NCBI GenBank assembly: GCA_964441775.1
Contig: CAYTVL010000006.1
Coordinates: 9,312-73,311, forward strand
Source: an uncultured Enterobacteriaceae bacterium
GTDB taxonomy: Bacteria; Desulfobacterota; Binatia; Bin18
Reading direction: 5' to 3'
DNA: 64,000 bases
Shown here: positions 4,232-60,336 of the stretch, piece by piece
Position numbering within the stretch: the first letter of the stretch is position 1
Layout of the letters: each line of letters begins with the position of its first letter
Made by a program: the position numbers and the translations under genes
Notes under the pieces: model-generated
What the model was told of the DNA's origin: nothing
The model's input: the letters and a program-made list of their open reading frames with translations, nothing else
Database searches by the model: none

Positions 4232-4235
4232 ACAC

Positions 4236-4272
4236 GATCAGCCCCGCCTCTCTGTGAGGGGCGGCGTGATTC
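4236..4272. terminator. Bidirectional stem-loop between convergent phosphoesterase (+) and phoR (-)
   Basis: GCCCCGCCTCTC-TGT-GAGGGGCGGC, a ~9-bp GC stem with one G-U wobble, in the 78-bp gap between two stop codons. Confidence 0.45.
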
Positions 4273-4309
4273 TCGACACAGGTGGAAGAGGCGCTGATTT
4301 CCGACCCGG

Positions 4310-5773
4310 CTATCGTCCTCTTTCCACAACGAGCGGCAAGAACAGTCGAAACGTCGTACCGTGATTGAGCTGGCTTTCGATATGGAGAAAGCCGCCGTGG
4401 GCTTGGACGATGTGCTTGACAATCGCAAGACCCAACCCCGTGCCGCCGAGTTCTCGGGAGCGCGCCTTGTCAACGCGGTAGAACCGTTGCGTCAATTTGG
4501 GAATTTCTGAGACGGGGATGCCAGCGCCCGTGTCCGCAACAGCGATATCCAGCCAGTCGCCTGAAAGCTCTACTTCTTGCTCTTGCCCGTTTGCTCCCTG
4601 TATAGTGGATTTCGGCTTGGACACGGCTTTTGCGGACACTGTCACCGTCCCGCCAGTGGGCGTGTATTTGATGGCGTTATCCACCAGGTTCAGCACCACT
4701 TGATGCAGTCGGTCATTATCGGCCACAAGCGCGGGCAGCTCTGGTGAAAATTCATGAAGTAACTGCACCCCGCCGCGCGCTGCTTTCTCGTGCACGACTT
4801 CAAACACATCATCAGTCAATTCAGGAAGCAGGACCGTTTCACGTCGTAGCTCAGTTTTCCCAAGTTCAAGATCGGACAATGTTAACAAATCTTCGATGAG
4901 GCGGCTGAGTCGCTCGGAGTGACGATCGATGATCGTCAGAAAACGTGCCGCGGTCTCAGGCTCTTTAAGTGCGCCATTCAAGAGGGTTTCCGCATACCCT
5001 TTGATCGCGGTCAGCGGAGTGCGCAATTCGTGCGACACATTCGCTACAAAGTCCGAACGCACCACCTCCAGCCGTTTGAGTTGTGTTAAATCGTGAAACA
5101 CGAGGACATAACCCGTTACCGTAACGCCGTCACCATGCACGGGCATGGCGCTGGCCGAGAGGAAGCGATGTGTTTTTCCTTCGATCTCAATTTCGCGGGA
5201 CACCGGCGCATCGCCAGGACGTCGGGTCGCCACTTCCCGCAAGAGTTCCGGCAGCACAAAGTGGCGAGAAAAAGCCTGGACGGGTTTGCCCCGCCAATCG
5301 TGGGTTGACGACAGGCCAAACAGGTCCTGCGCAGCGCGGTTACACAACATGACACTGCCGGTCGGATCAATTACGAGCACGCCTTCAGCCATACTTTGTA
5401 AGACCGCCTCCAGCTTTTTTTCTTCGCTTTGCAGGGTCCGTATTTCTTCATGGAAACGACTCACGAGCCGCTGAAATCCTCGTTCCAGAGCCCCCACTTC
5501 ATCTTCATCCCACACCGGCAAGGAAGACGGGAATTCACGTAGTGGGGCTGCGTCGAGAAAATGCAGCAACCGTTGTAACCGCTTCCGCAAGTGCGCTCCA
5601 GAGAAAACCGCCAGCACGAGAGCCGCCATGCTCAACAGAGCGAGACTGGCTCCGGTCAGAAAAGAAGGAGAAGTGAGTGAGACGGAGACGAGGAGGAGAT
5701 AGACGGCAAGCGCGCCGAGGACGAGACTGGGAAAAAAGAGAACAGAGAAGAGGATGCTATTGCTCCAGCGCAT
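4310..5773 (-). CDS. phoR: Phosphate-regulon sensor histidine kinase PhoR
   Basis: Two N-terminal TM helices and a PAS region. H-box 'SHELRTPLTAIKGYAETL' and HATPase_c G-boxes 'DTGAGIP' and 'GGTGLGLAIVK'. Overlaps phoB by 17 bp and lies in the pst-phoU-phoBR operon. Confidence 0.9.
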   Translation of the reverse strand: MRWSNSILFSVLFFPSLVLGALAVYLLLVSVSLTSPSFLTGASLALLSMAALVLAVFSGAHLRKRLQRLLHFLDAAPLREFPSSLPVWDEDEVGALERGFQRLVSRFHEEIRTLQSEEKKLEAVLQSMAEGVLVIDPTGSVMLCNRAAQDLFGLSSTHDWRGKPVQAFSRHFVLPELLREVATRRPGDAPVSREIEIEGKTHRFLSASAMPVHGDGVTVTGYVLVFHDLTQLKRLEVVRSDFVANVSHELRTPLTAIKGYAETLLNGALKEPETAARFLTIIDRHSERLSRLIEDLLTLSDLELGKTELRRETVLLPELTDDVFEVVHEKAARGGVQLLHEFSPELPALVADNDRLHQVVLNLVDNAIKYTPTGGTVTVSAKAVSKPKSTIQGANGQEQEVELSGDWLDIAVADTGAGIPVSEIPKLTQRFYRVDKARSRELGGTGLGLAIVKHIVQAHGGFLHIESQLNHGTTFRLFLPLVVERGR

Positions 5774-6506
5774 CGGGATTGCACTTGTACCCTACGCCAC
5801 GAACGGTCAAGATGAAGGTCGGATTAGCGTCATCCTGCTCCAGTCGTTGACGCAAACGGCGAATATGCACGTCTACTGTGCGTGGCTCCACATATACATC
5901 TTGACCCCAGACTAAATCAAGGATTTGTCCACGGCTAAACACACGGTTGGGATACTGCAAGAAAAATTTGAGCAACTCAAATTCGCGCAGCCCTAGCCCT
6001 AGCGGCTGACCATCTAAGAACACTTCATACGTATCAAAATCGATGTGGAGCCGCCCTTTTTCATACACTTCGTGCGGTTTATCCAGCACCGCGCCATACG
6101 CGCGCCGCAACACGGCTTTGACCCGCGCCACCAATTCACGCGGACTGAACGGCTTGGTGACATAGTCGTCCGCGCCCATCTCAAGACCGAGGACTTTATC
6201 GATCTCGGAGGCGCGCGCCGTAAGAATTAAGATCGGCACTCGCGAGGTCTCGTCGCGCTCGCGCAGCTTGCGACAGACTTCGAGTCCCGACAAACCGGGC
6301 AACATCAGATCAAGCACGACCAGCGCAGGGCGTTCCCGCGCCGCGAGTGATAAGCCGATTTCACCATCGCTGGCTTCGACAACGGAAAAACCTTCAGTCT
6401 CTAAATTGTAGCGGACAAGTGCGCGAATATCAGTTTCATCCTCAACCACCAGCACTTTCCGCTTGGGTTCGTTGAAGGTTGCTCGTCCTACATTTATTTG
6501 TTCCAT
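5757..6506 (-). CDS. phoB: Phosphate-regulon response regulator PhoB (OmpR family)
   Basis: Receiver with 'VLVVEDETDIR', 'LDLMLPGLSG' and 'TKPF', plus a winged-helix C-terminus 'RTVDVHIRRLRQRL'. Operon context. Confidence 0.9.
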   Translation of the reverse strand: MEQINVGRATFNEPKRKVLVVEDETDIRALVRYNLETEGFSVVEASDGEIGLSLAARERPALVVLDLMLPGLSGLEVCRKLRERDETSRVPILILTARASEIDKVLGLEMGADDYVTKPFSPRELVARVKAVLRRAYGAVLDKPHEVYEKGRLHIDFDTYEVFLDGQPLGLGLREFELLKFFLQYPNRVFSRGQILDLVWGQDVYVEPRTVDVHIRRLRQRLEQDDANPTFILTVRGVGYKCNPDALEQ

Positions 6507-44632: not shown

Positions 44633-46294
44633 ATGAAGACTCGTGTCGCCGTTGCTGTTAAAAAGCCCGATCGTGACGCAACCAAAAAGCGATCACCTCA
44701 ACCGCCACGGCTGAAAAAACTCGTCGCGCTCGGAGTGCTGTTGCCGTTCGTCGTCGGCATGGTCGTGCTGTGGTGGTGGAGCACAGGGCTCCAGCAGCAA
44801 CAGCTTGAGGCAGCAGCCCTTGCACAGGCTCAAGCTTACGTCCAAGCCTTACGGGAAACAGGCAGCATCTACGCAGCCGACTCAGGAAACCACGCAAAAG
44901 CGAATTTTTCTGTTTTGTTAACGAAATCCGCGGATGGGGTAAAAACTCAGGAGACTGCGATTACCAGACGGTTGCACTTCAAAGAATCGGCTCCTGGGCA
45001 AGGAAAAAATAACGAAGCGGCCAGCGAATTCATACAAGGAGCATGGACCACCCTGTCAGCCAACCCCGGACAAGATTCGTGGCGCTTCGAGGACCGACAC
45101 GGGCAACCTACGCTTCACTATGCCACAGAATGGAAAGAAGGCGAGACCAAAGGGATTATAGAGCTTCTCGTGCCGATGGATCGCCTGGAGTCTTCGTTCT
45201 CACAGTATCGCTTGATGCTCCTAGGCTTAGGTGGCGTCGTCGGGCTACTTAGCCTTGGCTGGCTGATGTTCTCGCAGCGCACCGTCCGGCAAGAGGCGTG
45301 GGAAGCAAAGTCACGCTTTTTGATTCTTGAACGCGATCACCTCGAACAGGAGAAGCGCCTGCTGACCTACGCGCGCGAACAGCAGGAAAGAAAGCAAGAA
45401 GAAACAATAGTCTACAGTATCACCGACATGCTCGCCACGGTCACGAGCGATCTCTTACAAGTGACCACCGAGCTCGCGTCCGGCGCTGCGGAAATGGCGG
45501 CTGGCGTCAATCAGACAACCGCTACTGGAGAAGAAGTCCAACGCACGGCGGCGCTCTCTCATCAAAAGGCGCAAGACGTCGCAGCGGCTGCTCAACATGC
45601 CGCCCAAGTAGCGCAAGCCGGAAAACAAGCTACTGAGGACACGACCAAAGAGATGCAGCGGATTCGTGATCAGATGCGGTCGATTACGGAAAGCACGGTG
45701 CAACTGAGCGAGCAGGGCCAGACCGTCCGTGAGATCATCGATACGGTGAATGATCTGGCCGAGCAGTCGAACGTGCTGGCCATTAACGCCGCCATCGAAG
45801 CGCAGAAAGCCGGGGTGCACGGCAACGGCTTTGTCATCGTGGCCCAAGAAGTACGCAGCCTCGCCCAACAGTCAAAAGACGCCACCGCGCAAGTGCGAGA
45901 GATTCTCAACGACATCGAGAACGCCACCAGTAGCGCCGTACAAATCACCACCCAAGGCGAGAAAGCTGCTGAAGCCGGCACGCAGCAGGCAATTGAAGCT
46001 GGAGAAGCGATTCGCTTATTGTTCCAGAGCGCGCAAGAGTCGGCGCAAAGCGCCGCGCAGATTGCTGCGTCCAGTCAACAGCAAATGCTTGGCATCGAGC
46101 AACTCGTTCGCGCCATGCACTCCATGCAGGACAGTAGTGCTCAGACGATGACCAACGCGCAACAAGTCGAGCACTGCGTCCAGCGCTTGCAAGAATTAGA
46201 TCAGCGCCTTAGGGCATTAAGCGAACAGCTCGGCGGAGACGCGTCGGTCCATGCGACGCCACCCGAGCAAGCAGAGTTGGCAAAAGCCGCGTAA
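44633..46294 (+). CDS. Methyl-accepting chemotaxis protein
   Basis: N-terminal TM helix, a periplasmic domain, a second TM helix and a C-terminal signalling domain with 'LAEQSNVLAINAAIEAQKAG'. Confidence 0.85.
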   Translation: MKTRVAVAVKKPDRDATKKRSPQPPRLKKLVALGVLLPFVVGMVVLWWWSTGLQQQQLEAAALAQAQAYVQALRETGSIYAADSGNHAKANFSVLLTKSADGVKTQETAITRRLHFKESAPGQGKNNEAASEFIQGAWTTLSANPGQDSWRFEDRHGQPTLHYATEWKEGETKGIIELLVPMDRLESSFSQYRLMLLGLGGVVGLLSLGWLMFSQRTVRQEAWEAKSRFLILERDHLEQEKRLLTYAREQQERKQEETIVYSITDMLATVTSDLLQVTTELASGAAEMAAGVNQTTATGEEVQRTAALSHQKAQDVAAAAQHAAQVAQAGKQATEDTTKEMQRIRDQMRSITESTVQLSEQGQTVREIIDTVNDLAEQSNVLAINAAIEAQKAGVHGNGFVIVAQEVRSLAQQSKDATAQVREILNDIENATSSAVQITTQGEKAAEAGTQQAIEAGEAIRLLFQSAQESAQSAAQIAASSQQQMLGIEQLVRAMHSMQDSSAQTMTNAQQVEHCVQRLQELDQRLRALSEQLGGDASVHATPPEQAELAKAA

Positions 46295-46340
46295 AGACGC
46301 CCGTCACGTTGGTCTGGTGGGAGTCGTCTTAAACGTGCTC

Positions 46341-46850
46341 ATGGAAACGCCGATACACAAAGCGGAAATCCCTGTCACCATGGAAACTGCGAATGCTCTT
46401 CTTGTTTGTACTCTGGATGCGCACCAGTGCGCCTTTCGTCTGGACATCGTACAACGGGTCGTCCGCGCCGCCGCGCTCACTCCGCTTCCTAAAGCCCCGA
46501 AGAGCGTCCTCGGCGTCGTGAATGTCGCCGGACAACTGGTTCCGGTTTTCAATCTTCGTCAACGCTTTGGTTTGCCCGCGCGAGAACTAGAGCCCACCGA
46601 TTGCTTTGTGATCGTCCGCGCCGTGCGTTTTTCTCTGATCTTCGTGGTCGACACGGTTGTTGAAGTCCGCGAACACGAATCGGAGAAAAAAATGCCGCTC
46701 AAACACCTCTTGCCCAAGGCGAGTGTGAGCGCCGGCGTGGAATGTTTCGGGAGTGGACTGATTGTTATCAACACCGTTAATTCGTTTCTTTTAGCCGAAG
46801 AGGAACGCCTGTTGACCAAGACGCTGCCCGGCATTCAGGAGGTCCGGTAA
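46341..46850 (+). CDS. cheW: CheW-like coupling protein
   Basis: CheW domain ('VLGVVNVAGQLVPVFNLRQRFGL'). Start set at ATG 46341, just after the MCP stop. Confidence 0.8.
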   Translation: METPIHKAEIPVTMETANALLVCTLDAHQCAFRLDIVQRVVRAAALTPLPKAPKSVLGVVNVAGQLVPVFNLRQRFGLPARELEPTDCFVIVRAVRFSLIFVVDTVVEVREHESEKKMPLKHLLPKASVSAGVECFGSGLIVINTVNSFLLAEEERLLTKTLPGIQEVR

Positions 46851-46851
46851 A

Positions 46852-48408
46852 TTGAGCGCCAGCCTCTCTCCTCAGGTGCTCGCGCAACTGAGCCAGCGCA
46901 TCGAAGCGTGGATGGGCGTCTATTTTCCCCTGGAACGCTGGCCGGATCTTGAGCGCAAGCTGCACGAAGCCGCAGCCGACTTCGGCTGTGTTGATGTAGA
47001 GGAGTGCGCTCGCTTGCTCACGACTGCTCCAATTACAAAACACCAGCTTGATGTGTTGGCGACCACGCTCACCGTGGGAGAAACCTATTTCTTTCGTGAA
47101 CCAAGCAGCCTGGAAATTGTCGAACGCGACCTCCTGCCAAAATTGTTGCAAGAGCGGCGCGCCGTTGACCAACGTCTCCGGGTCTGGAGCGCAGCGTGTT
47201 GCACGGGAGAAGAGCCCTATTCCATCGCGATCATGCTCCATCGCTTGTTGCCTGATCTGCCTTCTTGGAAGCTGACGTTGCTCGCCACGGACATTAACCC
47301 GAGATTTTTGCAGAAAGCAACTGAAGGCGCATATGGCCAGTGGTCGTTTCGCACCGTGTCCCCCACTTTACAAGAGCAGTATTTTTGCCGGACGCCAAGC
47401 GGACGCTACGCTATTCAGCCGGTGCTCAAACAGATGGTGAAGTTCGCCCGACTCAACCTGGCGGAAGACCAGTATCCTTCTCCCCTGAATGACACCACCG
47501 GCATGGATATCATCTTTTGCCGAAACGTCTTGATTTATTTTGCTGCGGAGCGGACCAAGCGCGTAATTGAGAATTTCTATCGCGCCCTCGCCGTCGGCGG
47601 CTGGTTCATCGTGAGCGCCGTGGAGACCGCGCTGGTGATGGACTCTCCCTTTACTCCGGTCCAGTTCCCTGGCGTGACTCTGTTCCGCAAAGATCCAGAG
47701 CGACTCTCGCTTTCTGTGCCAGCCGCCTCATTTCTCGGTGAGCCCACGCTTGAGCCGTCCGCGCCGCCAAGCCCGGCGCTCTCCGTCGCCGAGACGTTGG
47801 AAAAATTTTTCAACGTTGTCTCCGCGGCTTCTTTCGAGCACGACATTCATCAAGCCGAAACTGCTCCGTCAGAACTGCCACAAACGCTCACGCTTCAGAC
47901 GTATGAAGAGGCCCAGTATCTGTACACAGGGGGCCGCTATGCGGAGGCCATCGAGAAACTGTCCGCCATTTGTTGGGATGGACCGGCGGAGACGTTCCCC
48001 TTTCCAGCGGCGCGCGAACAAGGCATGACGTTGCTTACTCGCGCGTATGCCAATCAAGGGCAACTCGCCGAAGCACAATTGTGGTGCGACCGGGCGCTCG
48101 CGGTGAACACGCTCGATCCTGTGCTTCACTATTTGCGCGCCACGATTGCGCTAGAGTACGGGCAGGAGACCGAAGCCCTGTCTTCGCTGACTCGCGCCGT
48201 GTCACTTGACCAACGCTTTGTCCTCGCCCATTTCGTCCTGGGCGTTCTAGCGCGCCAACGTCACAACCAGCAGGAAGCACGGGAGCATTTTTCCGCGGCG
48301 CTGACGCTTTTGCGCCAACATCATCCAGACGACGTTCTGCCGCATTCCGAAGGGATGTCGGCGGGCCGACTGGCTCACATCCTCGTGGAGATGAACAAGG
48401 AACAGTAA
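46852..48408 (+). CDS. cheR: Chemotaxis methyltransferase CheR with C-terminal TPR repeats
   Basis: CheR N-terminal helical domain and an SAM-MTase domain ('RVWSAACCTGEEPYSIAIML' and 'DIIFCRNVLIYF'). The C-terminal ~150 aa are TPR-like. Confidence 0.85.
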   Translation: MSASLSPQVLAQLSQRIEAWMGVYFPLERWPDLERKLHEAAADFGCVDVEECARLLTTAPITKHQLDVLATTLTVGETYFFREPSSLEIVERDLLPKLLQERRAVDQRLRVWSAACCTGEEPYSIAIMLHRLLPDLPSWKLTLLATDINPRFLQKATEGAYGQWSFRTVSPTLQEQYFCRTPSGRYAIQPVLKQMVKFARLNLAEDQYPSPLNDTTGMDIIFCRNVLIYFAAERTKRVIENFYRALAVGGWFIVSAVETALVMDSPFTPVQFPGVTLFRKDPERLSLSVPAASFLGEPTLEPSAPPSPALSVAETLEKFFNVVSAASFEHDIHQAETAPSELPQTLTLQTYEEAQYLYTGGRYAEAIEKLSAICWDGPAETFPFPAAREQGMTLLTRAYANQGQLAEAQLWCDRALAVNTLDPVLHYLRATIALEYGQETEALSSLTRAVSLDQRFVLAHFVLGVLARQRHNQQEAREHFSAALTLLRQHHPDDVLPHSEGMSAGRLAHILVEMNKEQ

Positions 48409-48413
48409 CGGAA

Positions 48414-49046
48414 GTGACACGTATGAAAAGGGATAATCTTTCCGCCACCCTCGCACCTGAGCAAGCTGCCGCCGTTCCGGCTGCGACGCCGAGCGATACT
48501 GAATATATGTTGACACTGACTCCTCAACAAAAGCAATGCATTTTAGCAGAGCGCGCCGTTGCGCTCGCGCAAGGCAAGGAGAAAGACGCCGAACAAGGAG
48601 CAACGCTGCGCCTCGTCGAGTTTACACTCGCCCAACAGCGCTACGCCGTCGAGACTTGTTATGTCCGAGAAGTGCAGCATGTCACGAGCATTACCCCGAT
48701 CCCTTGTACGCCGGTCTTTGTGTTAGGCGTGATCGGCGTCCGAGGACGCATTCTTTCGGTGATTGATCTGCTGGCGTTTTTCGATCATCCCCAGGCTCGC
48801 GTTTCAGAAGGCGGTACGGTGATCGTCTTCGGGACGGAAGAACTCGAAGTCGGAGTGCTTGTGGATGGTATTCTCGGCGCACACACCGTCTCCTTGCAGG
48901 ACATCCGTTCCGCGCCTGCGGGTCTCTCCAGCATCCGCCGAGAATACTTACGGGGCGTCGGGAAGGAGCAACTGCTCTTGCTGGATATCGAGCGACTGTT
49001 CTCGGACGAGCGCATGCTCATCGGTGCCGACGAGACAGAGATCTGA
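48414..49046 (+). CDS. cheW: CheW-like coupling protein (second copy)
   Basis: CheW domain ('FVLGVIGVRGRILSVIDLLAFF'). Confidence 0.8.
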   Translation: MTRMKRDNLSATLAPEQAAAVPAATPSDTEYMLTLTPQQKQCILAERAVALAQGKEKDAEQGATLRLVEFTLAQQRYAVETCYVREVQHVTSITPIPCTPVFVLGVIGVRGRILSVIDLLAFFDHPQARVSEGGTVIVFGTEELEVGVLVDGILGAHTVSLQDIRSAPAGLSSIRREYLRGVGKEQLLLLDIERLFSDERMLIGADETEI

Positions 49047-49105
49047 AATGAATAAGTTTGCCGCCAGGCGGGACACCGCAACTTACGGAAAAGAGGAATC
49101 TCTCT

Positions 49106-51280
49106 ATGCAACGTGCAATCGAACGAGCCGTTGAATATGCCATGAAATACCTGAAGGTCTGGCAGAAGCTCGGCTTTCTGGGCGTCGTGTTCCTCATCCC
49201 TTTGACCATCTTCATGTTCAAGACCATTGCCGCCATGCGCCTGACCGGCGTGGATTTGGCGAGACAAGAGGCGCTGGGCGTGGACTATCTCGTGTCTTTA
49301 CAAAGTTTGCTGGAAAATGTGCAGCAACATCGAGAATTAGAAGCGGCGCTGCTCAGCGGTGATGCGAACGTTGGCGAGCAGGTCACGGCGAAACAAGCTG
49401 TGATTCAGGACGAGCTGAAAAAAGTCGATGCGGTAGACGAGAAAACAGGGGAAGCACTCCTGGCGACCAATCATTGGACGGCGTTGAGAAAACGGGTCGC
49501 GCGGCTTCTGGAGAGTAATCCAAAAGAAAAAGTGCAGGAAAACTTCGAACAGCACACCGCCGTCATCAAAGACTTGCTCGCTTTCATGGTGGTTATAGAA
49601 GACACCTCTAAATTAGCGTTGGACCCTCACCTTGCCAGCGCCAGTCTGGTCGATTTGTTCGCGCGGAAACTCCCGCAACTGAATGAAACACTGAGTCAAG
49701 CGCGAGGGATAGGAATGGGCGTCGCCGTCCGCAAAAACAAAACGGAGGAAGAACGAGTAAAGCTGAGCAAACTCGGCGCGTTGATCGAAGTGCGCCTGCA
49801 AGAAGCCCAGCAGGGGTTGGAAAAGGTTTTCGCCTATGACAATCGCCTGCGCAGCAAATTGGGGACGACCGGGGCGGAGTTGTTGAATGACGAGAACAGC
49901 ACCATCGATCTGTTCAGTCGTCAACTCCTCACTGCGTCGGCAATCCCGGCGGCGGCTTCCGAGGCCGTGATTGCCGCAAGCGCAAATCCGCTGGTCGCAA
50001 GTTTTGCGTTGACCCGACAAACCGGGGCCGCACTCGCCGATGCGCTGCATACACGCGAGAAGACTCTCTCCTGGGAAATGTACACCATGCTCAGTTGGAT
50101 TTTCGTGGGCGTGATTGTGGTGACGCTCATCGGCGTGGTCGTGGTCCGCGACATCACCGATCCGCTGCGGCGCGTGGTGCGAGTCGCCGAGCAAATCGCC
50201 CAAGGCGACCTTTCGGTTTCCGTGTCGACAGATGACCGGTCGGACGAATTCGGCGCGCTCCTCGCCTCTTTCCAACGCATGACCAAATCGCTGCAAGACA
50301 TGGCGCTCGCGGCTGAGCGCATCGCTCGGGGCGATCTGAGCGTTAGCATCGAGCCGCAGTCGCCGAAAGATATGATGGGCAACGTCCTTTCGAGACTCGT
50401 CCACAGTTTGCGAGAGATGACCGAGCAGATTCAAACAGGGACCGATCTCTTGAGCTCTACAACGAACGAAATCCTTGCCGCCACCACGCAAGTGGCTGCT
50501 GGCGCCACGCAAACCGCTTCCGCCGTGACCGAAACGGCGGCCACTGTGGAGCAAGTGAAACAAACCTCTTTCATCGCCAGCCAAAAAGCGAAAAGCGTGG
50601 CCGAAAGCGCGCAAGTCACCGCGCAAGTCTCGCGCGCGGGAGAACAATCAGTGAGTTACGCTATCAGTCGCATGGAGCGGATTCGCGAGCAAATGGAATC
50701 CATTGCTGATAGCGTAATCAAACTTGGAGAGCAAAGTCGCGCGATTGGCGAGATCATTACTTCGGTGAATGACTTGGCGGACCAATCGAATTTGCTTTCT
50801 GTTAATGCGGCCATTGAAGCTGCGAATGCGGGTGAGCATGGCAAAGGCTTCACGGTCGTCGCACAAGAAGTGAAGAGCCTGGCCGAACAATCAAAGCAGG
50901 CCACTGCACAAGTGCGCACGATTCTCAGAGATATTCAAAAGGCTACGAATGTCGCGGTGATGGTGACTGAACAAGGAACCAAAGCCGTGGAAGCTGGCGT
51001 TTCTCAGTCGCTTGAAGCTGGTGGTTCGATTCGCATGCTCGCCAAGAGCATGGCGGAAGCGGCGCAAGCAGTTGCGCAAATTGCCGCCTCCAGCCAGCAG
51101 CAAGTTGTCGGTATGGACCAGGTCGTGATTGCGATCGAAAGCATCAAAGAAGCGAGCAACCAGAACGTGACCAGCGTGAATCAGGTGGAGAAGAGCATGC
51201 ATCGCCTGCTCGATCTTGGTCAACAATTACAACAACTAGTCGGACGCTACAAATTGCACGGCGCCACGGCGCAAGCATAG
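49106..51280 (+). CDS. Methyl-accepting chemotaxis protein with tandem HAMP domains
   Basis: Two HAMP-like segments (DPLRRVVRVAEQIAQGDLSV and LQDMALAAERIARGDLSV) and the MCP signalling domain 'LADQSNLLSVNAAIEAANAG'. Start at ATG 49106, which has the better RBS. Confidence 0.85.
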   Translation: MQRAIERAVEYAMKYLKVWQKLGFLGVVFLIPLTIFMFKTIAAMRLTGVDLARQEALGVDYLVSLQSLLENVQQHRELEAALLSGDANVGEQVTAKQAVIQDELKKVDAVDEKTGEALLATNHWTALRKRVARLLESNPKEKVQENFEQHTAVIKDLLAFMVVIEDTSKLALDPHLASASLVDLFARKLPQLNETLSQARGIGMGVAVRKNKTEEERVKLSKLGALIEVRLQEAQQGLEKVFAYDNRLRSKLGTTGAELLNDENSTIDLFSRQLLTASAIPAAASEAVIAASANPLVASFALTRQTGAALADALHTREKTLSWEMYTMLSWIFVGVIVVTLIGVVVVRDITDPLRRVVRVAEQIAQGDLSVSVSTDDRSDEFGALLASFQRMTKSLQDMALAAERIARGDLSVSIEPQSPKDMMGNVLSRLVHSLREMTEQIQTGTDLLSSTTNEILAATTQVAAGATQTASAVTETAATVEQVKQTSFIASQKAKSVAESAQVTAQVSRAGEQSVSYAISRMERIREQMESIADSVIKLGEQSRAIGEIITSVNDLADQSNLLSVNAAIEAANAGEHGKGFTVVAQEVKSLAEQSKQATAQVRTILRDIQKATNVAVMVTEQGTKAVEAGVSQSLEAGGSIRMLAKSMAEAAQAVAQIAASSQQQVVGMDQVVIAIESIKEASNQNVTSVNQVEKSMHRLLDLGQQLQQLVGRYKLHGATAQA

Positions 51281-51298: not shown

Positions 51299-54200
51299 AT
51301 GGATACAAAAGACACTGCCTTGTTAGCGAAGTTACGGGGTCTGTTTGGAATGGAAGCGGAAGAGCGGCTGCAGGTCATCACCAGCAGTTTGCTGGCGCTG
51401 GAGCAACAGCCCTCCGCTCAGACCCACACCGAGCTGGTCGAGACGCTCTTTCGCGAAGTGCATACCCTCAAGGGCGCCGCGCGCGCGGTGAGCCTGAGCG
51501 ACATTGAAGCCATCAGTCAGGCCGTGGAGAACGTCTGCGCCGGGCTCAAACGCAAGACGGTGACGGCGGGACCGGAGTTATTTGACACCTTTCATCGGGC
51601 AATGGATCTGGTGCGGCAGTTGAGTGCGGCGCCCGAGGGGGTCACGGCGCAGCAGATTGCGGACGTACTCGCGGCCATTACGCACGCCGAAGAACACGCC
51701 CAAGGACCGCAAGCCTGGCAGGCTCAACAAACTCAGTCTGCCCCGCCCACGCTGACCTTTCAACAAGATGACGACGTTCCGTCCGCTTCTCAACTCATGA
51801 CCCAGGGGACTCCGTCTACGATCACAGGCGAAGCACAAGACTCTTTGTTAGCGAAGTTACGGGGTCTGTTTGGAATGGAAGCGGAAGAGCGGCTGCAGGT
51901 CATCACCAGCAGTTTGCTGGCGCTGGAGCAACAGCCCTCCGCTCAGACCCACACCGAGCTGGTCGAGACGCTCTTTCGCGAAGTGCATACCCTCAAGGGC
52001 GCCGCGCGCGCGGTGAGCCTGAGCGACATTGAAGCCATCAGTCAGGCCGTGGAGAACGTCTGCGCCGGGCTCAAACGCAAGACGGTGACGGCGGGACCGG
52101 AGTTATTTGACACCTTTCATCGGGCAATGGATCTGGTGCGGCAGTTGAGTGCGGCGCCCGAGGGGGTCACGGCGCAGCAGATTGCGGACGTACTCGCGGC
52201 CATTACGCACGCCGAAGAACACGCCCAGGCTCAGTCTGCTCTACCCACACCGGCCCTGACAAGCATCGAACAATTCACATCGGCCACACCGACCACACCG
52301 GAGCCTGCACAAACACAAATCGTAGAGGCGCTTCAGCCAGTCGAGATCCACGAGGACTCTGCCGCAAACGACGACGCACCCTCGCCAAAAGCAAAAAAGA
52401 AACGGCTGCCGCGCGCAGCCGCCGCTCCTCGCCAAACCGCGGCCCGGCAACCCCGAGCCGCGAAGAAAAAGGCTACGATTGAACCGTCCGTTGCCCTGAA
52501 CGAAAGTGAAGCAGCAGCTTCAGGAAATACGGAGGACAACGTACAACTTGTTGACATAAATCCGCACGAGACGCTCGCCGCCAGTGAACCGGTGGAAGTC
52601 GCAGCGCCCGAGCCGACTCCAGTACAACCACCAGCGGCAATGCCGCAGCTCGAACGCCTGACGCCTCCGCTTGCGACCGCGCGCAAGCTGGAACCGCTCG
52701 TCGATTTCAGAGAAAAAGTAGACAAGAACAAGAAAAAGAAAAGCGGCGCCACGTCTACGGAGACGGTCCGCATCGAGGCGTCCAAGCTGGACGCGCTGTT
52801 TCTCCAAGCCGAGGAAATGCTGACCGTCAAACTCAAAACCAACGAACATGCCTCGGAGCTGCGCGAACTGGGGACCATGTTGGAAGCGTGGAAGCGAGAA
52901 TGGGCGAAAGTCCACATGCACCTCCGCAAAGCGCAAGGGTTGGTGGAAAAAGAAGAGAACCGCACCTCTCCTGATCCGATCTACGCGCAAACCGCCAAAC
53001 TTGTTGAATTTTTGAACTGGACGCAGGACCATTTTCGCATCGTGGACCGTACGCTGACGCGGATGGTGAAAGGCCTGGCGAAGGATCAACAGTCCTTAGG
53101 GAGCATGGTCGATATCCTTTTAGAAGACGCCAAAAAAATTCTTCTGATGCCGTTTGCGTCCGCACTCGAAGTGCTGCCTAGAATGGTGCGGGATCTTTCG
53201 CGCACCCAGGGTAAAGAGGTGGAGTTCATGCTCCAGGGAGAAGAGGTCGAAATAGACAAACGGATCCTGGAAGCCATCAAAGATCCGTTGATTCATCTGC
53301 TGCGCAATTGCATCGATCACGGGATCGAGCTGCCAGCGGAACGAGCGCAGTGGAGCAAAGCGCCACGCGGTTCCCTGTCGGTCGCCATCGCGCCAAGCGA
53401 TGGCAACACAGTGGAAATCATTGTGTCAGACGACGGCGCTGGTATTGATGTGGAGAAAGTCAAAAAAGCGGCGGTGGCCTGCGATGCCCTTTCACAAGAA
53501 GCGGCGGCGTTGCTCTCGGATCAGGAAGCGATTGCCTTGATCTTTCAGTCCGAAGTCTCTACCAGTGACGCCGTGAGTGATATTTCGGGGCGCGGGCTGG
53601 GCATGGCCATCGTTCGGGAAAAAGTCGAAAAACTTGGTGGTTCCATCGCCGTGGAAACTCAGCTCCATCAGGGCACGACCTTCCGACTGCGCTTGCCGCT
53701 GACGTTGGCGACCTTTCGCGGCATTCTCGTACAGATCGCGGGACAAGCGTTCATCGCGCCCACGGCGAATGTTGAACGCATGGTGCGGGTCAAACGGGGC
53801 GTGGCGATACAGACCAGTGGAGGGAAAGAAACCCTCTCCCTTGCCGGCTACACGCTGCCTTTCACACAGCTTGACCGAGTGCTGGGCCTCGCCTCGCCAA
53901 TGCCCACGGTTGCAAAAGAGCGATTTCAACTCGCGTTGGTCGTGGGGCAAGATGAGCGGCAAGTCGCTTTTGGCGTAGATGCTGTCATGGACGAACAAGA
54001 AGTACTGTTCAAAAGTCTCGGTCAACAACTCGTGCGGGTGCGGAATATCGCGGGTGCCACGGTTTTGGGCTCGGGGCAAATCGTCCCAATCCTCAATATC
54101 AACGATCTGTTGGCCGCCGTGAACACCGCAACGTTCTCGTCTACAAAAGTCATACACCAAACGCCCAAAGCGGACCTCCAGAAGAAAAAGATTTTGGTGG

Positions 54201-54544
54201 CGGAAGACTCGATCACCTCACGAATGTTGCTCAAAGAGATTCTCGAATCCGCAGGCTATGTGGTGTCAACGGCGATTGACGGAGAAGACGCGTTTACGAC
54301 CTTGCAGAAGAACTCGTTCGACCTCGTGGTGTCCGATGTGGAAATGCCGCGCGTGGACGGGTTTTCTTTGACGGGGAAAATTCGTAGTGATGAACGTTAT
54401 ACCCAATTGCCGGTGGTCCTGGTGACTGGCTTGGAGTCGCAAGGAGATCGTGAGCGTGGCGTCGCGGTGGGCGCCAGCGCCTACGTGGTCAAGGGCAGTT
54501 TTGACCAAAGCAACTTATTGGAGACGATTCGTCGCTTAATCTAA
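51299..54544 (+). CDS. cheA: CheA-type histidine kinase with duplicated N-terminal Hpt (P1) domains and a C-terminal receiver (CheA-CheY hybrid)
   Basis: Two identical Hpt segments ('HTLKGAARAV'), a dimerisation domain and an HATPase (DHGIE...DDGAGID...GRGLGMAIV). A CheW-like P5 domain precedes the REC ('ILVAEDS', 'DLVVSDVEMP'). Confidence 0.9.
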   Translation: MDTKDTALLAKLRGLFGMEAEERLQVITSSLLALEQQPSAQTHTELVETLFREVHTLKGAARAVSLSDIEAISQAVENVCAGLKRKTVTAGPELFDTFHRAMDLVRQLSAAPEGVTAQQIADVLAAITHAEEHAQGPQAWQAQQTQSAPPTLTFQQDDDVPSASQLMTQGTPSTITGEAQDSLLAKLRGLFGMEAEERLQVITSSLLALEQQPSAQTHTELVETLFREVHTLKGAARAVSLSDIEAISQAVENVCAGLKRKTVTAGPELFDTFHRAMDLVRQLSAAPEGVTAQQIADVLAAITHAEEHAQAQSALPTPALTSIEQFTSATPTTPEPAQTQIVEALQPVEIHEDSAANDDAPSPKAKKKRLPRAAAAPRQTAARQPRAAKKKATIEPSVALNESEAAASGNTEDNVQLVDINPHETLAASEPVEVAAPEPTPVQPPAAMPQLERLTPPLATARKLEPLVDFREKVDKNKKKKSGATSTETVRIEASKLDALFLQAEEMLTVKLKTNEHASELRELGTMLEAWKREWAKVHMHLRKAQGLVEKEENRTSPDPIYAQTAKLVEFLNWTQDHFRIVDRTLTRMVKGLAKDQQSLGSMVDILLEDAKKILLMPFASALEVLPRMVRDLSRTQGKEVEFMLQGEEVEIDKRILEAIKDPLIHLLRNCIDHGIELPAERAQWSKAPRGSLSVAIAPSDGNTVEIIVSDDGAGIDVEKVKKAAVACDALSQEAAALLSDQEAIALIFQSEVSTSDAVSDISGRGLGMAIVREKVEKLGGSIAVETQLHQGTTFRLRLPLTLATFRGILVQIAGQAFIAPTANVERMVRVKRGVAIQTSGGKETLSLAGYTLPFTQLDRVLGLASPMPTVAKERFQLALVVGQDERQVAFGVDAVMDEQEVLFKSLGQQLVRVRNIAGATVLGSGQIVPILNINDLLAAVNTATFSSTKVIHQTPKADLQKKKILVAEDSITSRMLLKEILESAGYVVSTAIDGEDAFTTLQKNSFDLVVSDVEMPRVDGFSLTGKIRSDERYTQLPVVLVTGLESQGDRERGVAVGASAYVVKGSFDQSNLLETIRRLI
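51320..52227 (+). repeat. Perfect in-frame tandem duplication inside cheA (383-bp identical copies at 51320-51702 and 51845-52227, period 525 bp)
   Basis: Identical nucleotide strings at both ends and in the middle of the copies. The encoded 127 aa are identical. Confidence 0.85.
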
Positions 54545-54566
54545 GAAGGGGCTCACGGGTTGTCAT

Positions 54567-55658
54567 ATGTCTGTGGTTCGCGTGCTCATCGTTGAAGACT
54601 CGCTGGTGGAACGCACCTTGATGGTGAGTCTTCTCAGCGCTGACCCCGAAATCGAAGTCGTGGGGGCAGTGCCGAGCGGCGCAGCCGCGCTCTCGTTTCT
54701 CAAGCAGCAACGGCCCGATGTTATTACCATGGACATCACCATGCCGGACTTGAATGGGTACGAAACGACGCGGCGCATTATGGAAACGACGCCAGTGCCG
54801 ATTATTATCGTTGGCGAAAGATGGAGTGTTGAGGAAGGGGACGCTTCCCCCGTGTTCGATACCGGAGCCGTCGCCGAGCTACAGAAACCTTCCGGCGTAG
54901 GCAGCCTCGACTATGAAGAAGAGGCAAAACGGTTTGTTCAGACGGTGAAAGCGATGGCGGAGGTCAAGGTAGTAAGGCGCTGGGCGCGTCATCGCCATCG
55001 ACGGAACGAAGGGGACTCAAAACCAGAAGCTCTTGCCTTGGACGTTGCTCCTCCTCAAGAGCGAAAAGACCTGCATGTGGTGGCGGTTGGGTCTTCTACG
55101 GGCGGGCCAGCCGTATTGCAAACTGTTTTAGCACATTTACGCAAGGATTTTGCTTTGCCAGTCGTTATTGCTCAACATATTGCTCCAGGATTTCTCGACG
55201 GTCTCACGAAATGGTTGGGACAGACCACGGGGCACAAGGTGCAGATTGCCATGCAACGAGAACGACTGGCGCCGGGGCACATCTATCTGGCCCCAGATGG
55301 GTTACAGATGGGAGTCGAGCCGCCAGGCGTCATTGTCCTTCGAAAAGACGCCCTCGAACATGGCATGCGGCCCGCGGTGTCCTACCTGTTCCGGTCCGTG
55401 ATGAGTGCGTTCGGCAAAAACGCCGTAGGGGTGTTGCTCACGGGCATGGGACGAGACGGCGCGGAGGAGCTCAAGCAAATGCGGGAGACGGGGTCTCTCA
55501 CGATTGCCCAAGACCAAGCCACCTCCATTGTCTTTGGCATGCCAGGAGAAGCGGTCAAGCTGGGCGCGGCCATGTATGTGCTGCCGCCGGAAAAAATTGC
55601 AGCGCTTTTGAACGATATGATGGACTGTTCCACCACCGCCGGTCTCAGCGCTTCTTGA
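54567..55658 (+). CDS. cheB: Chemotaxis response regulator protein-glutamate methylesterase CheB
   Basis: REC domain ('VLIVEDS', 'DVITMDITMP') and a methylesterase domain ('GSSTGGP' and 'GMGRDGA'). Confidence 0.9.
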   Translation: MSVVRVLIVEDSLVERTLMVSLLSADPEIEVVGAVPSGAAALSFLKQQRPDVITMDITMPDLNGYETTRRIMETTPVPIIIVGERWSVEEGDASPVFDTGAVAELQKPSGVGSLDYEEEAKRFVQTVKAMAEVKVVRRWARHRHRRNEGDSKPEALALDVAPPQERKDLHVVAVGSSTGGPAVLQTVLAHLRKDFALPVVIAQHIAPGFLDGLTKWLGQTTGHKVQIAMQRERLAPGHIYLAPDGLQMGVEPPGVIVLRKDALEHGMRPAVSYLFRSVMSAFGKNAVGVLLTGMGRDGAEELKQMRETGSLTIAQDQATSIVFGMPGEAVKLGAAMYVLPPEKIAALLNDMMDCSTTAGLSAS

Positions 55659-55664
55659 GGCGAG

Positions 55665-56819
55665 GTGCGGAACAGGAATGAGCGTATGAGTGCAAAAAAG
55701 ACCATCCTCATTGTAGAAGGAAGCCGGACGCAAGCCGAGCGGTTGAGGCTTGTGTTGGAGGCATACGACTATGCCGTGAGCATGGCGACGGCCAGCAGTG
55801 AAGCGCTCGTCGCCGCACGCGCGCAACAACCTGCGCTCATCATCAGCGGCGTCGCCCTGGCAGGAACAGACGGCTTAGATGGGTATGAGATGTGTGCGGC
55901 GCTCAAGCGGGACAAGGAATTGCAGCAGATTCCAGTTGTTTTATTAACTGCGCTGTCGGATGTGGAAGACCTGCTGCGCTGTCTAAAATCGCGTGTCGAC
56001 TATTGCATCGCGAAGCCCTATCAAGAAGAAGAATTACTCGCCAGGATTTCCGCGATCCTCACCGGTCTGGTGCGCACCATTGGGCAAACGGAACGAGAAA
56101 ACCTTGAAGTGCTCCTGCGCGGAGAACGCGAAGTCATCGCCGCCGATCACCAGCAACTTGCACGCTTGCTCTTGTCAACTCACGAAAACTACAGCGTCTT
56201 GTTACGCCAGAATCGTGCGTTGTCCGCCACGCAACTTCAACTCAAAACGCAGAACCAGCATCTTCAAACAGAATGTGAGCGCCTGCAAACCGCGCTACGA
56301 CAAGCGCAAGAAGGAGAGACGACGCTTTCGACATCGCATGCAGTCGCAGTGGGAGCAAAAGATGGGGTCCACGGAGACGAAGAGAATCTCGTCTTGCTCG
56401 CGGATGACACTGCCGTCGGTCAAGTGTTGTTAAGAAGATTTCTCGAAAAATTAGGCTACCAAGTTGACATAATGCACGATGGTCTTGACGTCGTCAAGGC
56501 ATATAAAAAACGACGGTACGCGGCTGTGGTGATGGATGTTCAGTTGCCGACGCTGGACGGTTGTGAAGCCACGCGGCAGATTCGTCAACATGAATACTCC
56601 TGCGGACGACAGGTTCCCGTCATCGTGGTCGCGGCGTATGCGCAACCTCATGATGAGGAGCGCTGTTTGGCGGCAGGCGCCAACGAGTATTTGCTGAAGC
56701 CGGTAACGTTGGAAGCGTTGAAACGCATACTGACGTCACGGAGGTTACCCCTTTCATCATCAAATGGAAAAGACGCAGCGGGCGCACGCGGGTCCGCCAC
56801 TCGGACGGAGAGCTTGTGA
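55665..56819 (+). CDS. Tandem receiver protein: degenerate (non-phosphorylatable?) REC - coiled coil - canonical REC
   Basis: REC1 has 'ILIVEGS' and 'LIISGVALAGTDG', lacking the acidic pair and the phospho-Asp. REC2 has 'LLADDT', 'VVMDVQLPTLDG' and 'LLKP'. Confidence 0.75.
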   Translation: MRNRNERMSAKKTILIVEGSRTQAERLRLVLEAYDYAVSMATASSEALVAARAQQPALIISGVALAGTDGLDGYEMCAALKRDKELQQIPVVLLTALSDVEDLLRCLKSRVDYCIAKPYQEEELLARISAILTGLVRTIGQTERENLEVLLRGEREVIAADHQQLARLLLSTHENYSVLLRQNRALSATQLQLKTQNQHLQTECERLQTALRQAQEGETTLSTSHAVAVGAKDGVHGDEENLVLLADDTAVGQVLLRRFLEKLGYQVDIMHDGLDVVKAYKKRRYAAVVMDVQLPTLDGCEATRQIRQHEYSCGRQVPVIVVAAYAQPHDEERCLAAGANEYLLKPVTLEALKRILTSRRLPLSSSNGKDAAGARGSATRTESL

Positions 56820-58768
56820 GGAAAACCGTCGCTGCAGAAAATCTATCGCCCCTCTCCATGGCGCTACCGTCGCGAGAAAAAGGAAAAGAGCTATACGCGA
56901 TTGACTCGATACTGGCTCCGCCTCCTCGGGATCCCTACGAAATGGAGCGGGCCGAACTCGACGCGTATTTACAGAGCACCGAGTATTTCCCTACGAAGAC
57001 CAGTCTCCTCGAATTCGCTCGCCGTTATAATGTCCCGGTGAATGCGCGAACCCAACGCGAAGAGATCGTTCGTCTCTGCCTGCGCATGATTCACGATATT
57101 CCCGCGAGTTTCGCCGGCCTCCGTGCGGCGGAACGGCCTCCGGCTTCCCCGTCAACCGGCGGAGGCCCTGCCCGGCAAGCTTTAACGGACTTCTTCGTCG
57201 GGTCAAAGGTGGAAAGTCGAACCGACGAGAGGGGCAGCAAAAAACTGTCAACTGACCTCTTGGATACTATTTTGCGTTGCCACGAAGTCGGGTTATTACT
57301 CGCCCAAGCGCGTGGCGCCGATATCGAAATGTTCCGGCAGATCTTAGAGACGTGCGAGAGCCCCATCCAAACGCACGTGCGCTTCCTGAGTAATCTTGTC
57401 GATTTTGCGCGGCTGGAAGCCGAGCAATATGAATTCGCTCGTACGCCGTTTCGTCTGCGTGACTGTATCGGTGAAGCGCTGAAGCGACTAGCCTTTTCCG
57501 CTCATGCGAAGCAGCTAGAACTGTGCTACGATGTAAAATCTGACGTCCCCGAGCGCGTGGTGGGCGACCCAACGCGACTCCAAGAGGTCATTCTCCACCT
57601 TGTTGACAATGCCCTCAAATTCACTGAACAAGGCGAAGTGGTGCTTGAGGTCAAAAAAGCGGAACAATCCAGTCAATCGCCTGTGACCGCCCCAACCAAC
57701 TTCCAGGTTCAGGACTCGGACTCTTTTCTCTTGCACTTTTCCGTGCGCGACACTGGCGTAGGTATGCCGCTAGAACAACTCCAGTCCATAACCCAATTGT
57801 TCTTTTCGCAGGGTATGGACGCTCCGCCTCGGTTACGAGGCCTGGGGCTCACCATCGCGCACTGCTTGGTGAAGTCGATGGGGGGCGCGCTGGCGATGAG
57901 CAGTGAAGCGGCCAATGGGTCCATCTGCTCCTTTTCCGTGCGGCTCCACAATGAGAGAGCGCGTGGCAGTGGCGGGGCCATACACACGAGCGCCCTGGGT
58001 GATCGGCAAATTCTCGTGGTCGACGATAACGCCGCCTACCGACGTATTCTGCACGATTTGTTACTTTCTTGGGGCGCGCGCCCACATCTCGCCGCCAGTG
58101 GACGAGAAGCCTTGGCGATGTTGTATAAACAGCCAGAGGCTGAGCCTTTTGCCGCTATCGTGCTCGATGGTCATCTTGCGGATATGGAAGGATTTGCCTC
58201 AATAAGACGGCAACATCTCGCCGAGAACTCGCTCCTGGCTAGCCCCATGCTCATGATGTTGGCGTCAACCGACCCGAGAAAAGAGATCGAGCGTCGCCGC
58301 GAGTTGCAGGTCGCGGCGTTTCTGCACAAACCGATCTCTCCCGCTGAACTGCTCCACGCGCTGTTGGAAGCCTCGGTGTCTGGAACGGTGTTGCCGGAAG
58401 AGGAAGTGTTGGATCGTACTGCGTTGTGGGCGCTCGTCGCCGGAGATACGACGCTGCTACAGGAATTAATTGGCGTGTTCGAGCAGGATTGTGGACGCTT
58501 CTTCTTTGCCTTGCAGCACGCCGTGCTCATCGAGAACTATCGTGACGTTATGACCGCCGTTCATGCGCTCCAAGGGACGGCTAGTCACTTTGCCGCACGC
58601 GGAGTGCTGCGCATTTCGGCGGTGATCGAAAGTTTTAGTTGTCAGGGCGATTTTGCCCGCGTCCAAGAAGCCATGACCCAACTCGCCGCCGAACTCTCGC
58701 GGCTCAAAAGAGCGTTAGACGATTTGCAACGAGAATTGTCTAGTTCGTCAACTTCGAAAGACTTTTAA
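56816..58768 (+). CDS. Hybrid sensor kinase: novel N-terminal ~70-aa domain - HisKA - HATPase_c - REC - Hpt
   Basis: 'LSNLVDFARLEAEQYEF' HisKA X-region. HATPase 'DTGVGMP' and 'GLGLTIAHCLV'. REC 'ILVVDDN' and 'AIVLDGHL'. C-terminal Hpt-like helices. The N-terminal domain is paralogous to ORF 60245-60691. Confidence 0.8.
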   Translation: MRKTVAAENLSPLSMALPSREKGKELYAIDSILAPPPRDPYEMERAELDAYLQSTEYFPTKTSLLEFARRYNVPVNARTQREEIVRLCLRMIHDIPASFAGLRAAERPPASPSTGGGPARQALTDFFVGSKVESRTDERGSKKLSTDLLDTILRCHEVGLLLAQARGADIEMFRQILETCESPIQTHVRFLSNLVDFARLEAEQYEFARTPFRLRDCIGEALKRLAFSAHAKQLELCYDVKSDVPERVVGDPTRLQEVILHLVDNALKFTEQGEVVLEVKKAEQSSQSPVTAPTNFQVQDSDSFLLHFSVRDTGVGMPLEQLQSITQLFFSQGMDAPPRLRGLGLTIAHCLVKSMGGALAMSSEAANGSICSFSVRLHNERARGSGGAIHTSALGDRQILVVDDNAAYRRILHDLLLSWGARPHLAASGREALAMLYKQPEAEPFAAIVLDGHLADMEGFASIRRQHLAENSLLASPMLMMLASTDPRKEIERRRELQVAAFLHKPISPAELLHALLEASVSGTVLPEEEVLDRTALWALVAGDTTLLQELIGVFEQDCGRFFFALQHAVLIENYRDVMTAVHALQGTASHFAARGVLRISAVIESFSCQGDFARVQEAMTQLAAELSRLKRALDDLQRELSSSSTSKDF

Positions 58769-58854
58769 GTTTCACCACTTCTCCCCGATGGGTATCAATG
58801 CGGTGTCCCTCTAGCGACTCAGATCGCACGGGATACGGCATAGGAGGTTTACGT

Positions 58855-60336
58855 ATGACTGGGTTTGACCCTGTCGTGATTATGATAGTCGTGCTGACTG
58901 CCGCCATTGTGGTGCTCCTCATCCGGATGGTGACGCAATCCAACGCACAGAAACCCGGGGCGGTGCTCAAGGCTGGAGCGGCGGCTAACGGCCCGCCTTT
59001 TATTGGACAGAGCCTTTCGGATATGTCGGGCAAGCAGCCTTCAGGACCGCGCCTCAGTACGCCACGCGTTGACCAATCTCCGCCTCTGCTCCCAACGTTA
59101 GCGCCCGTTAACGAACGGAAAAGCGCGCCGCAGGAGCCCGCCATTCTTGACCTAGCCAAACGCGACACCGCATCTGAGCCGTCTCCGCAGCCAGAGCCGA
59201 GCTTGCTCGTAACGGACAGTGACGCCAAGGAAAAAGAACCGGAGCCCACGCTCACTGCTGGAATCGCCTATGGACGGCGAAAATCAGATCTCTTGAAAGA
59301 GGAGAACGTGCAGACCTTATTTTCTGATCTCAAAGGAGAACGTAAAGCTCGCTTTATCAGTTTCATCAACTTCAAAGGAGGAGTGGGCAAAAGCACGACC
59401 GCGGTGGAAACCGCCGCGAGTCTAGCAAAAAATTACGGGAAACGGGTGCTGCTTATTGACCTCGACCCGCAAACGAACGCGACGTTCTATCTCATGGATC
59501 ATGGCGAGTGGGAGAGTTGGCAAAAGACGAACGGTTCGCTCAAGACTCTTTTCGACGCGTACCTCGCCGGGCAGGGCGACAGTTTCGACGTGTCCCGAAT
59601 CATCAAAAAGGATCTGCTGTGCCACGGCGGAGCCTCGCTCGCGCCTGGATTTGAACTCCTGCCCTCACATCTGGCGTTGGTGCAGATCGATATCCAACTC
59701 GCAGCCAAAGCTACGGTTGGCGAGTCGGTGTTCAGCAGTCAGGCTATTATTCGTCAAGCCTTGCAACGCGTGCAGGACCAATACGATTACGTTATTTTTG
59801 ACTGTCCGCCGAACTTCAATTTGGTGACGCAGAACGGCTTATTCGCCAGTGACGGGTATGTCATTCCCGCGATTCCCGATTATCTCTCCACCCTCGGCAT
59901 CAATTTGATCCAAGGAGAAGTCAATCGCTTCTCTGATCGCATCCGCCATGCCTTGGCCATGTTTGGCGGCACCTTCACCGGGCCCAAGCTGGAGGGCATT
60001 ATTTTTACCCGGGTGCGGTTGCGCAGTCGCTCGCCGTTACGATTTATCGATTTACATGAGCGACGCATTCATGAAGTCGTGCGCACCAATCCCGATGTCG
60101 TGTTCAAAAATTTCATCAGTGAGGCTGTGCGATTCGCTGAAGCGCCGGAGCGACAATTACCCGTCAGTCTTTCGCCGCGGATTGAAGATCGCGACGCGCG
60201 GAATGAGTTTATCCGGCTTGCCGAAGAGTTTATCCAACGCGTAGATGGAAAGGAGCTGTCCGGTGACGTCAATGAGCACACATGGGCTGGCGCAGAGGTT
60301 GGAGACTATCAGCAAAGCTTTGCGCGAGCTTCCTGA
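58855..60336 (+). CDS. Membrane-anchored ParA/MinD-family ATPase (ParC/PpfA-like, chemosensory-cluster associated)
   Basis: RBS AGGAGG 7 nt before ATG 58855. A TM helix ('VVIMIVVLTAAIVVLLI') and a ~150-aa Pro/Ser/Glu-rich linker. Deviant Walker A 'FKGGVGKSTTA' and 'LIDLDPQTNAT'. Confidence 0.75.
   Translation: MTGFDPVVIMIVVLTAAIVVLLIRMVTQSNAQKPGAVLKAGAAANGPPFIGQSLSDMSGKQPSGPRLSTPRVDQSPPLLPTLAPVNERKSAPQEPAILDLAKRDTASEPSPQPEPSLLVTDSDAKEKEPEPTLTAGIAYGRRKSDLLKEENVQTLFSDLKGERKARFISFINFKGGVGKSTTAVETAASLAKNYGKRVLLIDLDPQTNATFYLMDHGEWESWQKTNGSLKTLFDAYLAGQGDSFDVSRIIKKDLLCHGGASLAPGFELLPSHLALVQIDIQLAAKATVGESVFSSQAIIRQALQRVQDQYDYVIFDCPPNFNLVTQNGLFASDGYVIPAIPDYLSTLGINLIQGEVNRFSDRIRHALAMFGGTFTGPKLEGIIFTRVRLRSRSPLRFIDLHERRIHEVVRTNPDVVFKNFISEAVRFAEAPERQLPVSLSPRIEDRDARNEFIRLAEEFIQRVDGKELSGDVNEHTWAGAEVGDYQQSFARAS

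Follow-up and report, generated by a model that had tools for sequence, protein, structure and literature searches.

Nucleotide-identical twin Hpt domains in a CheA-REC kinase gene, probably an old tandem pair homogenised by recombination

The 64,000-nt stretch of contig CAYTVL010000006.1 analysed here in full (the window) carries a gene for a CheA-receiver (CheA-REC) hybrid kinase, the N-terminal part of which holds two identical Hpt (P1) domains encoded by a direct repeat that matches exactly over 383 nt. This repeat is genuine, and the protein with two Hpt domains probably is too. With a probability of roughly 0.7, and judging by sequence comparison, the two copies represent an old tandem Hpt pair whose sequences gene conversion or unequal crossing-over would have homogenised, and from which one copy would easily be lost.

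Exact comparison confirmed that the segment 51320-51702 recurs at 51845-52227 without a single mismatch over 383 nt, with a start-to-start offset of 525 nt, or 175 codons, as a preliminary description of the sequence had noted. This is the sole long repeat within the 64-kb window, and about 1e-221 such repeats would be expected by chance. The two arms are in frame inside one intact open reading frame (ORF; 51299-54544, forward strand, 1081 aa) and encode 127 whole codons alike, including the motif HTLKGAARAV with His55 in the first copy and His230 in the second, in agreement with the identical protein blocks reported earlier. The term "perfect 525-bp tandem duplication" used in that description does not fit the DNA, as only 383 of the 525 nt are repeated and the 142-nt spacer separating the arms (51703-51844) is unique. 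The parts of the gene, all on the forward strand, are as follows.

51299-54544, +, cheA-REC hybrid kinase gene, 1081 aa, organised as Hpt-A, spacer, Hpt-A, long linker, kinase core, CheW-like domain and receiver (ORF list, translation and Pfam)
51320-51702, +, Hpt-A copy 1, exact repeat arm, aa 8-135, with the His55 codon CAT at 51461-51463
51703-51844, +, unique 142-nt spacer, 47 aa, rich in Q, T, S and P, its 3' part resembling the spacer of the related locus L131
51845-52227, +, Hpt-A copy 2, exact repeat arm, aa 183-310, with the His230 codon CAT at 51986-51988
52228-52759, +, long low-complexity linker to the kinase core, including a basic stretch, PKAKKKRLPRAAAAPRQTAARQPRAAKKK, at 52385-52471
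52760-54544, +, kinase core and C-terminus, with a conserved helical region from ETVRIEASKLDALFLQAEEM, HATPase_c at 53282-53704, CheW-like domain at 53720-54118 and receiver at 54191-54529

Pfam analysis of the 1081-aa protein returned Hpt twice (E = 1e-24, two stretches), HATPase_c (P4, aa 662-802), CheW (the CheW-like P5, aa 808-940) and Response_reg. The dimerisation domain P3 (H-kinase_dim, PF02895) was not reported by Pfam at E <= 1e-3, and a conserved helical region from aa 488 sits where P3 would be expected; this domain is poorly conserved and often missed (PMC10782961). When the Hpt of the window was aligned to the P1 domain of Thermotoga maritima CheA (1tqg), HTLKG fell on HTLKG, and His55 and His230 are therefore the expected phosphorylation sites. 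The earlier reading of the gene as a CheA-REC hybrid with two identical P1 domains, each with a phospho-accepting histidine, is thus borne out by Pfam and by the 1tqg alignment, and the presence of both histidines lends support to the suggestion that tandem P1 domains would double the tethered phosphorylation sites. A single-sequence AlphaFold model of low confidence (mean pLDDT 48), which was used for secondary structure alone, showed the same helix run twice and a largely non-helical spacer.

Derivation of the spacer from upstream DNA (the 3' end of the preceding methyl-accepting chemotaxis protein (MCP) gene, the intergenic region and the gene start) was rejected (z = -0.7). Copying from the DNA that follows copy 2 was likewise rejected, the window offering just a weak match of 26 nt between 51732-51757 and 52230-52255 (77% identical, with 27 nt of in-frame indels, z about 3), and a spacer copy after copy 2 was looked for in the related loci L043 and L044 as well, where nothing was found. 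A simple recent tandem duplication is excluded, because the spacer between the arms is unique and no second copy of it follows copy 2.

Further evidence comes from relatives. In the large protein collection searched, the closest proteins make up a single family whose kinase cores share 54-77% identity with that of the window, and many of them possess two N-terminal Hpt domains. One member of the 90% cluster of P0004 carries a Methylomirabilota annotation; the source organism, and the clade (Methylomirabilota/Rokubacteria-like), probably fall there. The same twin layout was found in five other assemblies of related species for which DNA is available and in four additional protein-only cases, nine twin-Hpt relatives in all, the assemblies stemming from four sources (NCBI, ENA, JGI and Logan).

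Window: copies identical over 383/383 nt, offset 525
L043 (P0002), NCBI metagenome-assembled genome: copies 402/402 nt, offset 498
L129 (P0126), JGI, 241-kb contig: copies 394/394 nt, offset 504
L044 (P0003), ENA: copies 492/494 nt, of which 473 perfect, offset 561
L131 (P0128), ENA, 82-kb contig: copies 390/395 nt, offset 501
L045 (P0015), Logan: copies 82% identical at the nucleotide level, offset 531
P0006, protein only: copies 87% identical in amino acids
P0129, protein fragment: one difference in the overlapping part of the copies
P0130, protein fragment: few differences in the overlapping part of the copies

The perfect tract is shorter than the period in every case with DNA, and a unique spacer of 67-142 nt is present; both mismatches in L044 are confined to 21 nt at the left edge of the repeat tract. 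The closest relative, L131 (ENA ERZ25039490 contig_49310), is 75-84% identical to the window in nucleotides. Its genes are split in a manner typical of long-read indel errors (PNTB in three pieces, cheA in two and cheB in two), which suggests an error-prone long-read assembly, and the five differences between its Hpt copies may in part be sequencing errors; it shows two Hpt copies despite its many split genes. Single-Hpt relatives exist as well (P0009, P0012, P0013, L046, L047 and P0131). A scan of genome contigs returned distant receiver-domain matches only and no close relative, and a metagenome scan returned mostly relatives of at most 55% identity with a single Hpt.

Within a genome, the two copies show 98.7-100% nucleotide identity in five lineages, compared with 63-75% for orthologous Hpt-A DNA between twin genomes, where third positions are 44-62% identical. 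Synonymous divergence (dS) between copies of the same genome is 0 in the window, 0.03 in L131 and 0.64 in L045, as against approximately 1.0 between the window and L131 orthologues and saturation for the other pairs. All nine twin genes share one starting codon for the repeat (LL or FL). The residues ahead of copy 1 (M-E/D-T-K-D-T-A) are conserved between genomes and differ from those ahead of copy 2, where six residues of the G-E/D-x-Q/E-D-S type are also conserved between genomes (mean score 6.2, reached by 0 of 2000 shuffles); the flanks of copies 1 and 2 within a genome score 1.3, below the value for copy-2 flanks between genomes. The spacers of the window and L131 can be aligned, mostly over their 3' halves (z = 3.1, reached by 6 of 1000 shuffles). 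In the kinase-core tree no clade lacks twin-Hpt genes, the outgroup included, and they are interleaved with single-Hpt genes. A twin layout shared by species with a dS of about 1 or at saturation argues for an old duplication, the copies of which have been kept identical by recombination. The preliminary description had taken the lack of divergence to imply either a very recent duplication or an assembly artefact, an implication that is not supported in view of the unique spacer and of the same layout in these diverged species; the comparison with relatives that it had proposed speaks for two copies, which are identical or nearly so in several species, and against a recent origin.

In the proposed mechanism, recurrent homologous recombination between the two Hpt-coding segments would keep their DNA identical, either through gene conversion or through unequal sister-chromosome exchange by way of one-copy and three-copy intermediates. 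Beyond the edges of homology, divergence would be unconstrained at the start of the gene, in the spacer and in the linker that follows copy 2. The same recombination could delete or add one unit in frame, and such loss and gain would account for the interleaving of single- and twin-Hpt versions among close relatives. Two direct repeats of about 400 nt set 142 nt apart should be good substrates for homologous recombination; in Escherichia coli, direct repeats of such size recombine and delete at appreciable rates. One old duplication is also more economical than six or more independent ones with the same junction, and later homogenisation would still have to follow each of those before the unique spacers could be accounted for.

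A very recent, lineage-specific duplication in the window genome, in which the second Hpt has had no time to diverge, is considered unlikely. It would readily explain the zero differences across 383 nt and is in keeping with the existence of single-Hpt relatives, but the full 525-nt period should then repeat, whereas 142 nt of it occur once and have no source in upstream DNA. Moreover, L131 shares the layout and an alignable spacer although dS between the two species is about 1, and the duplication would have had to happen independently six times or more, each time with an identical left junction.

An assembly artefact, in which the second copy or the perfect identity was made by the assembler or polisher (a mis-traversed de Bruijn loop, or differing copies polished to one consensus), is distinctly improbable. 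The 383-nt repeat does exceed typical short reads, and the window protein lacks a second contig on record: exact-protein look-ups of the window CheA and of P0001 gave no second assembly. The near-identical strain contig L049 stops at 52537, short of the repeat. This metagenome contig (JACXTT010056490.1), from the same species in another data set, matches window positions 52537-57056 at 99.7% identity (13 mismatches in 4520 nt); starting 310 nt past copy 2, it is uninformative on the repeat. It is also true that same-strain assemblies can differ by exactly one unit, as seen for L129 and L130, whose DNA agrees completely (100%) over 23.3 kb save for one 504-nt unit (repeat arm plus spacer) that L130 lacks (L129 10001-13816 against L130 10001-13312, on JGI contigs of 241 kb and 101 kb from the different samples 3300010938 and 3300003890, respectively). 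Against an artefact, the spacer is joined to the repeat end on its left and to the repeat start on its right, and any genome with the spacer therefore holds at least two arms. In addition, the reading frame is intact, the twin layout occurs in six independent assemblies (NCBI, ENA, JGI and Logan), one of them apparently long-read, and repeats of this kind are usually collapsed by assemblers and rarely invented. An artefact that invented the second copy is unlikely, and caution is advisable with single-Hpt relatives known from short-read assemblies.

The idea that the twin units act as a recombination-driven in-frame switch, such that cells of one population carry one, two or more P1 domains and tune their signalling gain heritably and reversibly, is unlikely, and the form in which the repeats are maintained as identical because in-frame gain and loss of Hpt domains (1, 2, 3 and so on) provides heritable, reversible variation in signalling gain within a population is very improbable: the single-unit difference between L129 and L130, the periods that are all multiples of 3 (498, 501, 504, 525, 531 and 561) and the interleaving of twin and single forms in the tree would suit it, but L130 may owe its single copy to collapse during assembly, an allele with three copies was not seen among the loci compared, and any surviving allele needs an intact ORF, so that in-frame periods are not specific evidence. 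If it were true, the sequence identity would be preserved throughout a whole bacterial clade by selection, either for variability or for having two equivalent sites.

Several points weigh against an old, homogenised pair. The perfect identity in the window and the copy number of exactly two are those of the assembly, and the assembler could have arrived at a wrong number of copies (2 versus 3) or smoothed away some small differences. In L130, the single copy could equally well reflect true loss of a unit by recombination in one strain or an assembler's merging of the repeat arms. Spacer homology among the more distant species was not significant, with the exception of a marginal P0002-P0126 match, and relics of a lost second copy, sought in the single-Hpt relatives, yielded none that was clear (z of 2.2 or lower). 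The comparison caught no tract of mosaic (partial) conversion, and a distal, diverged Hpt of L043 (Hpt-B, described below) shows no conversion from Hpt-A at the DNA level. Conservation of the copy-2 flank could stem from a helix N-cap constraint instead of common descent. Finally, we infer the functional consequence of the twin Hpt entirely.

With regard to that consequence, the old tandem pair would give each protomer two equivalent phospho-accepting histidines on flexible tethers for one kinase domain. The two P1 domains being identical, no difference in partner specificity is possible, and the effect is likely one of dosage, with two tethered substrates per kinase domain, and not a division of labour. 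Phosphoryl flux could rise towards the several receivers of the pathway, which are the C-terminal one of the kinase itself, CheB and the REC-REC protein encoded downstream. The locus would offer a natural experiment on whether doubled P1 dosage alters kinase output, as well as a clean natural case of concerted evolution within a signalling protein. Repeats of this kind are easily collapsed in short-read metagenome assemblies, and Hpt counts of CheA proteins in uncultured bacteria may accordingly be underestimates. Chemosensory signalling as currently understood is not overturned by the twin-Hpt finding.

A search of the gene for an internal promoter that would give a short form of CheA found none. 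The basic stretch of the linker (CheA aa 363-391) is strongly so and is embedded in otherwise acidic low-complexity sequence; it is kept in relatives, reading GKRRRTTTPRKTTTRRPRATKKN in P0002, with similar stretches in P0003, P0004, P0005 and P0009. A further, diverged Hpt-B (53-69% amino acid identity to Hpt-A) lies between the basic stretch and the kinase core in L043, L044, L046, L047 and L129 and is missing from the window, L131, P0006 and L045; the window thus has no third, distal Hpt-B in its linker region, unlike L043, L044 and L129. The 69% amino acid identity in L043 hinted that Hpt-A had recently converted the distal Hpt-B there, but this was rejected on the basis of 65% nucleotide and 42% third-position identity.

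The kinase gene belongs to a Wsp-like chemosensory operon, probably of the alternative-cellular-function (ACF) type. Around cheA-REC, the genes identified by Pfam are the following.

44633-46294, +, MCP
46251-46850, +, CheW
46852-48408, +, CheR-TPR
48414-49046, +, second CheW
49058-51280, +, HAMP-MCP
54567-55658, +, CheB
55665-56819, +, REC-REC protein
56816-58768, +, HATPase-REC-Hpt hybrid kinase
58798-60336, +, ParA/MinD-like ATPase, 512 aa

The same operon, with transhydrogenase genes ahead of it, is present in L046, L047, L129, L130 and L131, and the REC-REC protein, which is devoid of an output domain, the sensor-less HATPase-REC-Hpt kinase and the ParA/MinD-like ATPase are all three syntenic in relatives. 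The CheR-TPR fusion, the fusion to a receiver, the absence of P2 and the gene order together suggest the ACF class; it is in clusters serving alternative cellular functions that such fusions of CheR to TPR are typically found (PMC3447774).

In more distant cheA loci, tandem MCP genes upstream of cheA share direct repeats of 750-880 nt with 86-100% identity (L074, L059, L096, L125, L097, L075 and L060; 90-100% in the first four), as in L074, where 3451-4332 equals 5103-5984. The signalling domains of these tandem MCP paralogues thus appear to have been homogenised. These repeats lie between neighbouring genes, whereas the Hpt repeat lies within one gene; a direct repeat between the two MCP genes of the window was not seen in the repeat search of the 64 kb. 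Taken together, these cases suggest that recombinational homogenisation is common in such chemosensory clusters.

Among known systems, the operon is closest in layout to Wsp of Pseudomonas (WspA-F and WspR), with which it shares the gene order MCP-CheW-CheR(TPR)-CheW-CheA/REC-CheB-response regulator. It differs from Wsp by an extra HAMP-MCP between the second CheW and cheA, by the additional hybrid kinase and ParA-like genes downstream, and by the gene after cheB, which encodes a REC-REC protein in which no GGDEF was detected by Pfam, so that there is no REC-GGDEF output of the WspR type. WspE, the CheA-REC of Wsp, is a distant match to the window kinase (29% identity), and carries one Hpt. 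The cluster thus resembles Wsp in layout and is not a Wsp orthologue.

As to the kinase itself, in a survey of 13,673 CheA sequences 18% had two or more Hpt domains (PMC10782961). The window protein resembles multi-Hpt CheA-REC proteins of the ACF and type IV pilus (Tfp) classes, such as ChpA of Pseudomonas aeruginosa (PMC10782961), in its at least two N-terminal Hpt domains, its lack of P2, its C-terminal receiver and its place in a chemosensory operon that is not of the flagellar type. The Hpt domains of multi-Hpt CheA proteins are normally divergent and thought to be specialised; in ChpA and the other multi-Hpt proteins sampled they are 33-60% identical and partly specialised or devoid of the histidine, whereas the window copies are identical in DNA, and the pair is identical down to synonymous sites in several species.

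A literature search of incomplete coverage turned up no account of Hpt domains in CheA undergoing concerted evolution or gene conversion. The nearest likeness at the DNA level is found in the alpha C and Rib surface proteins of group B streptococci, which contain large, nucleotide-identical intragenic tandem repeats that undergo concerted evolution; there too the repeats are long and in frame, and are both homogenised and varied in number by homologous recombination. Those proteins consist of many contiguous units and are surface antigens under immune selection, whereas the window gene has two units plus a unique spacer and encodes a cytoplasmic signalling kinase. The multi-Hpt CheA-REC architecture is therefore already known and the concerted evolution of intragenic repeats is a familiar process; the novelty is modest, and the unusual part is the DNA-level identity of the Hpt pair recurring across a clade.

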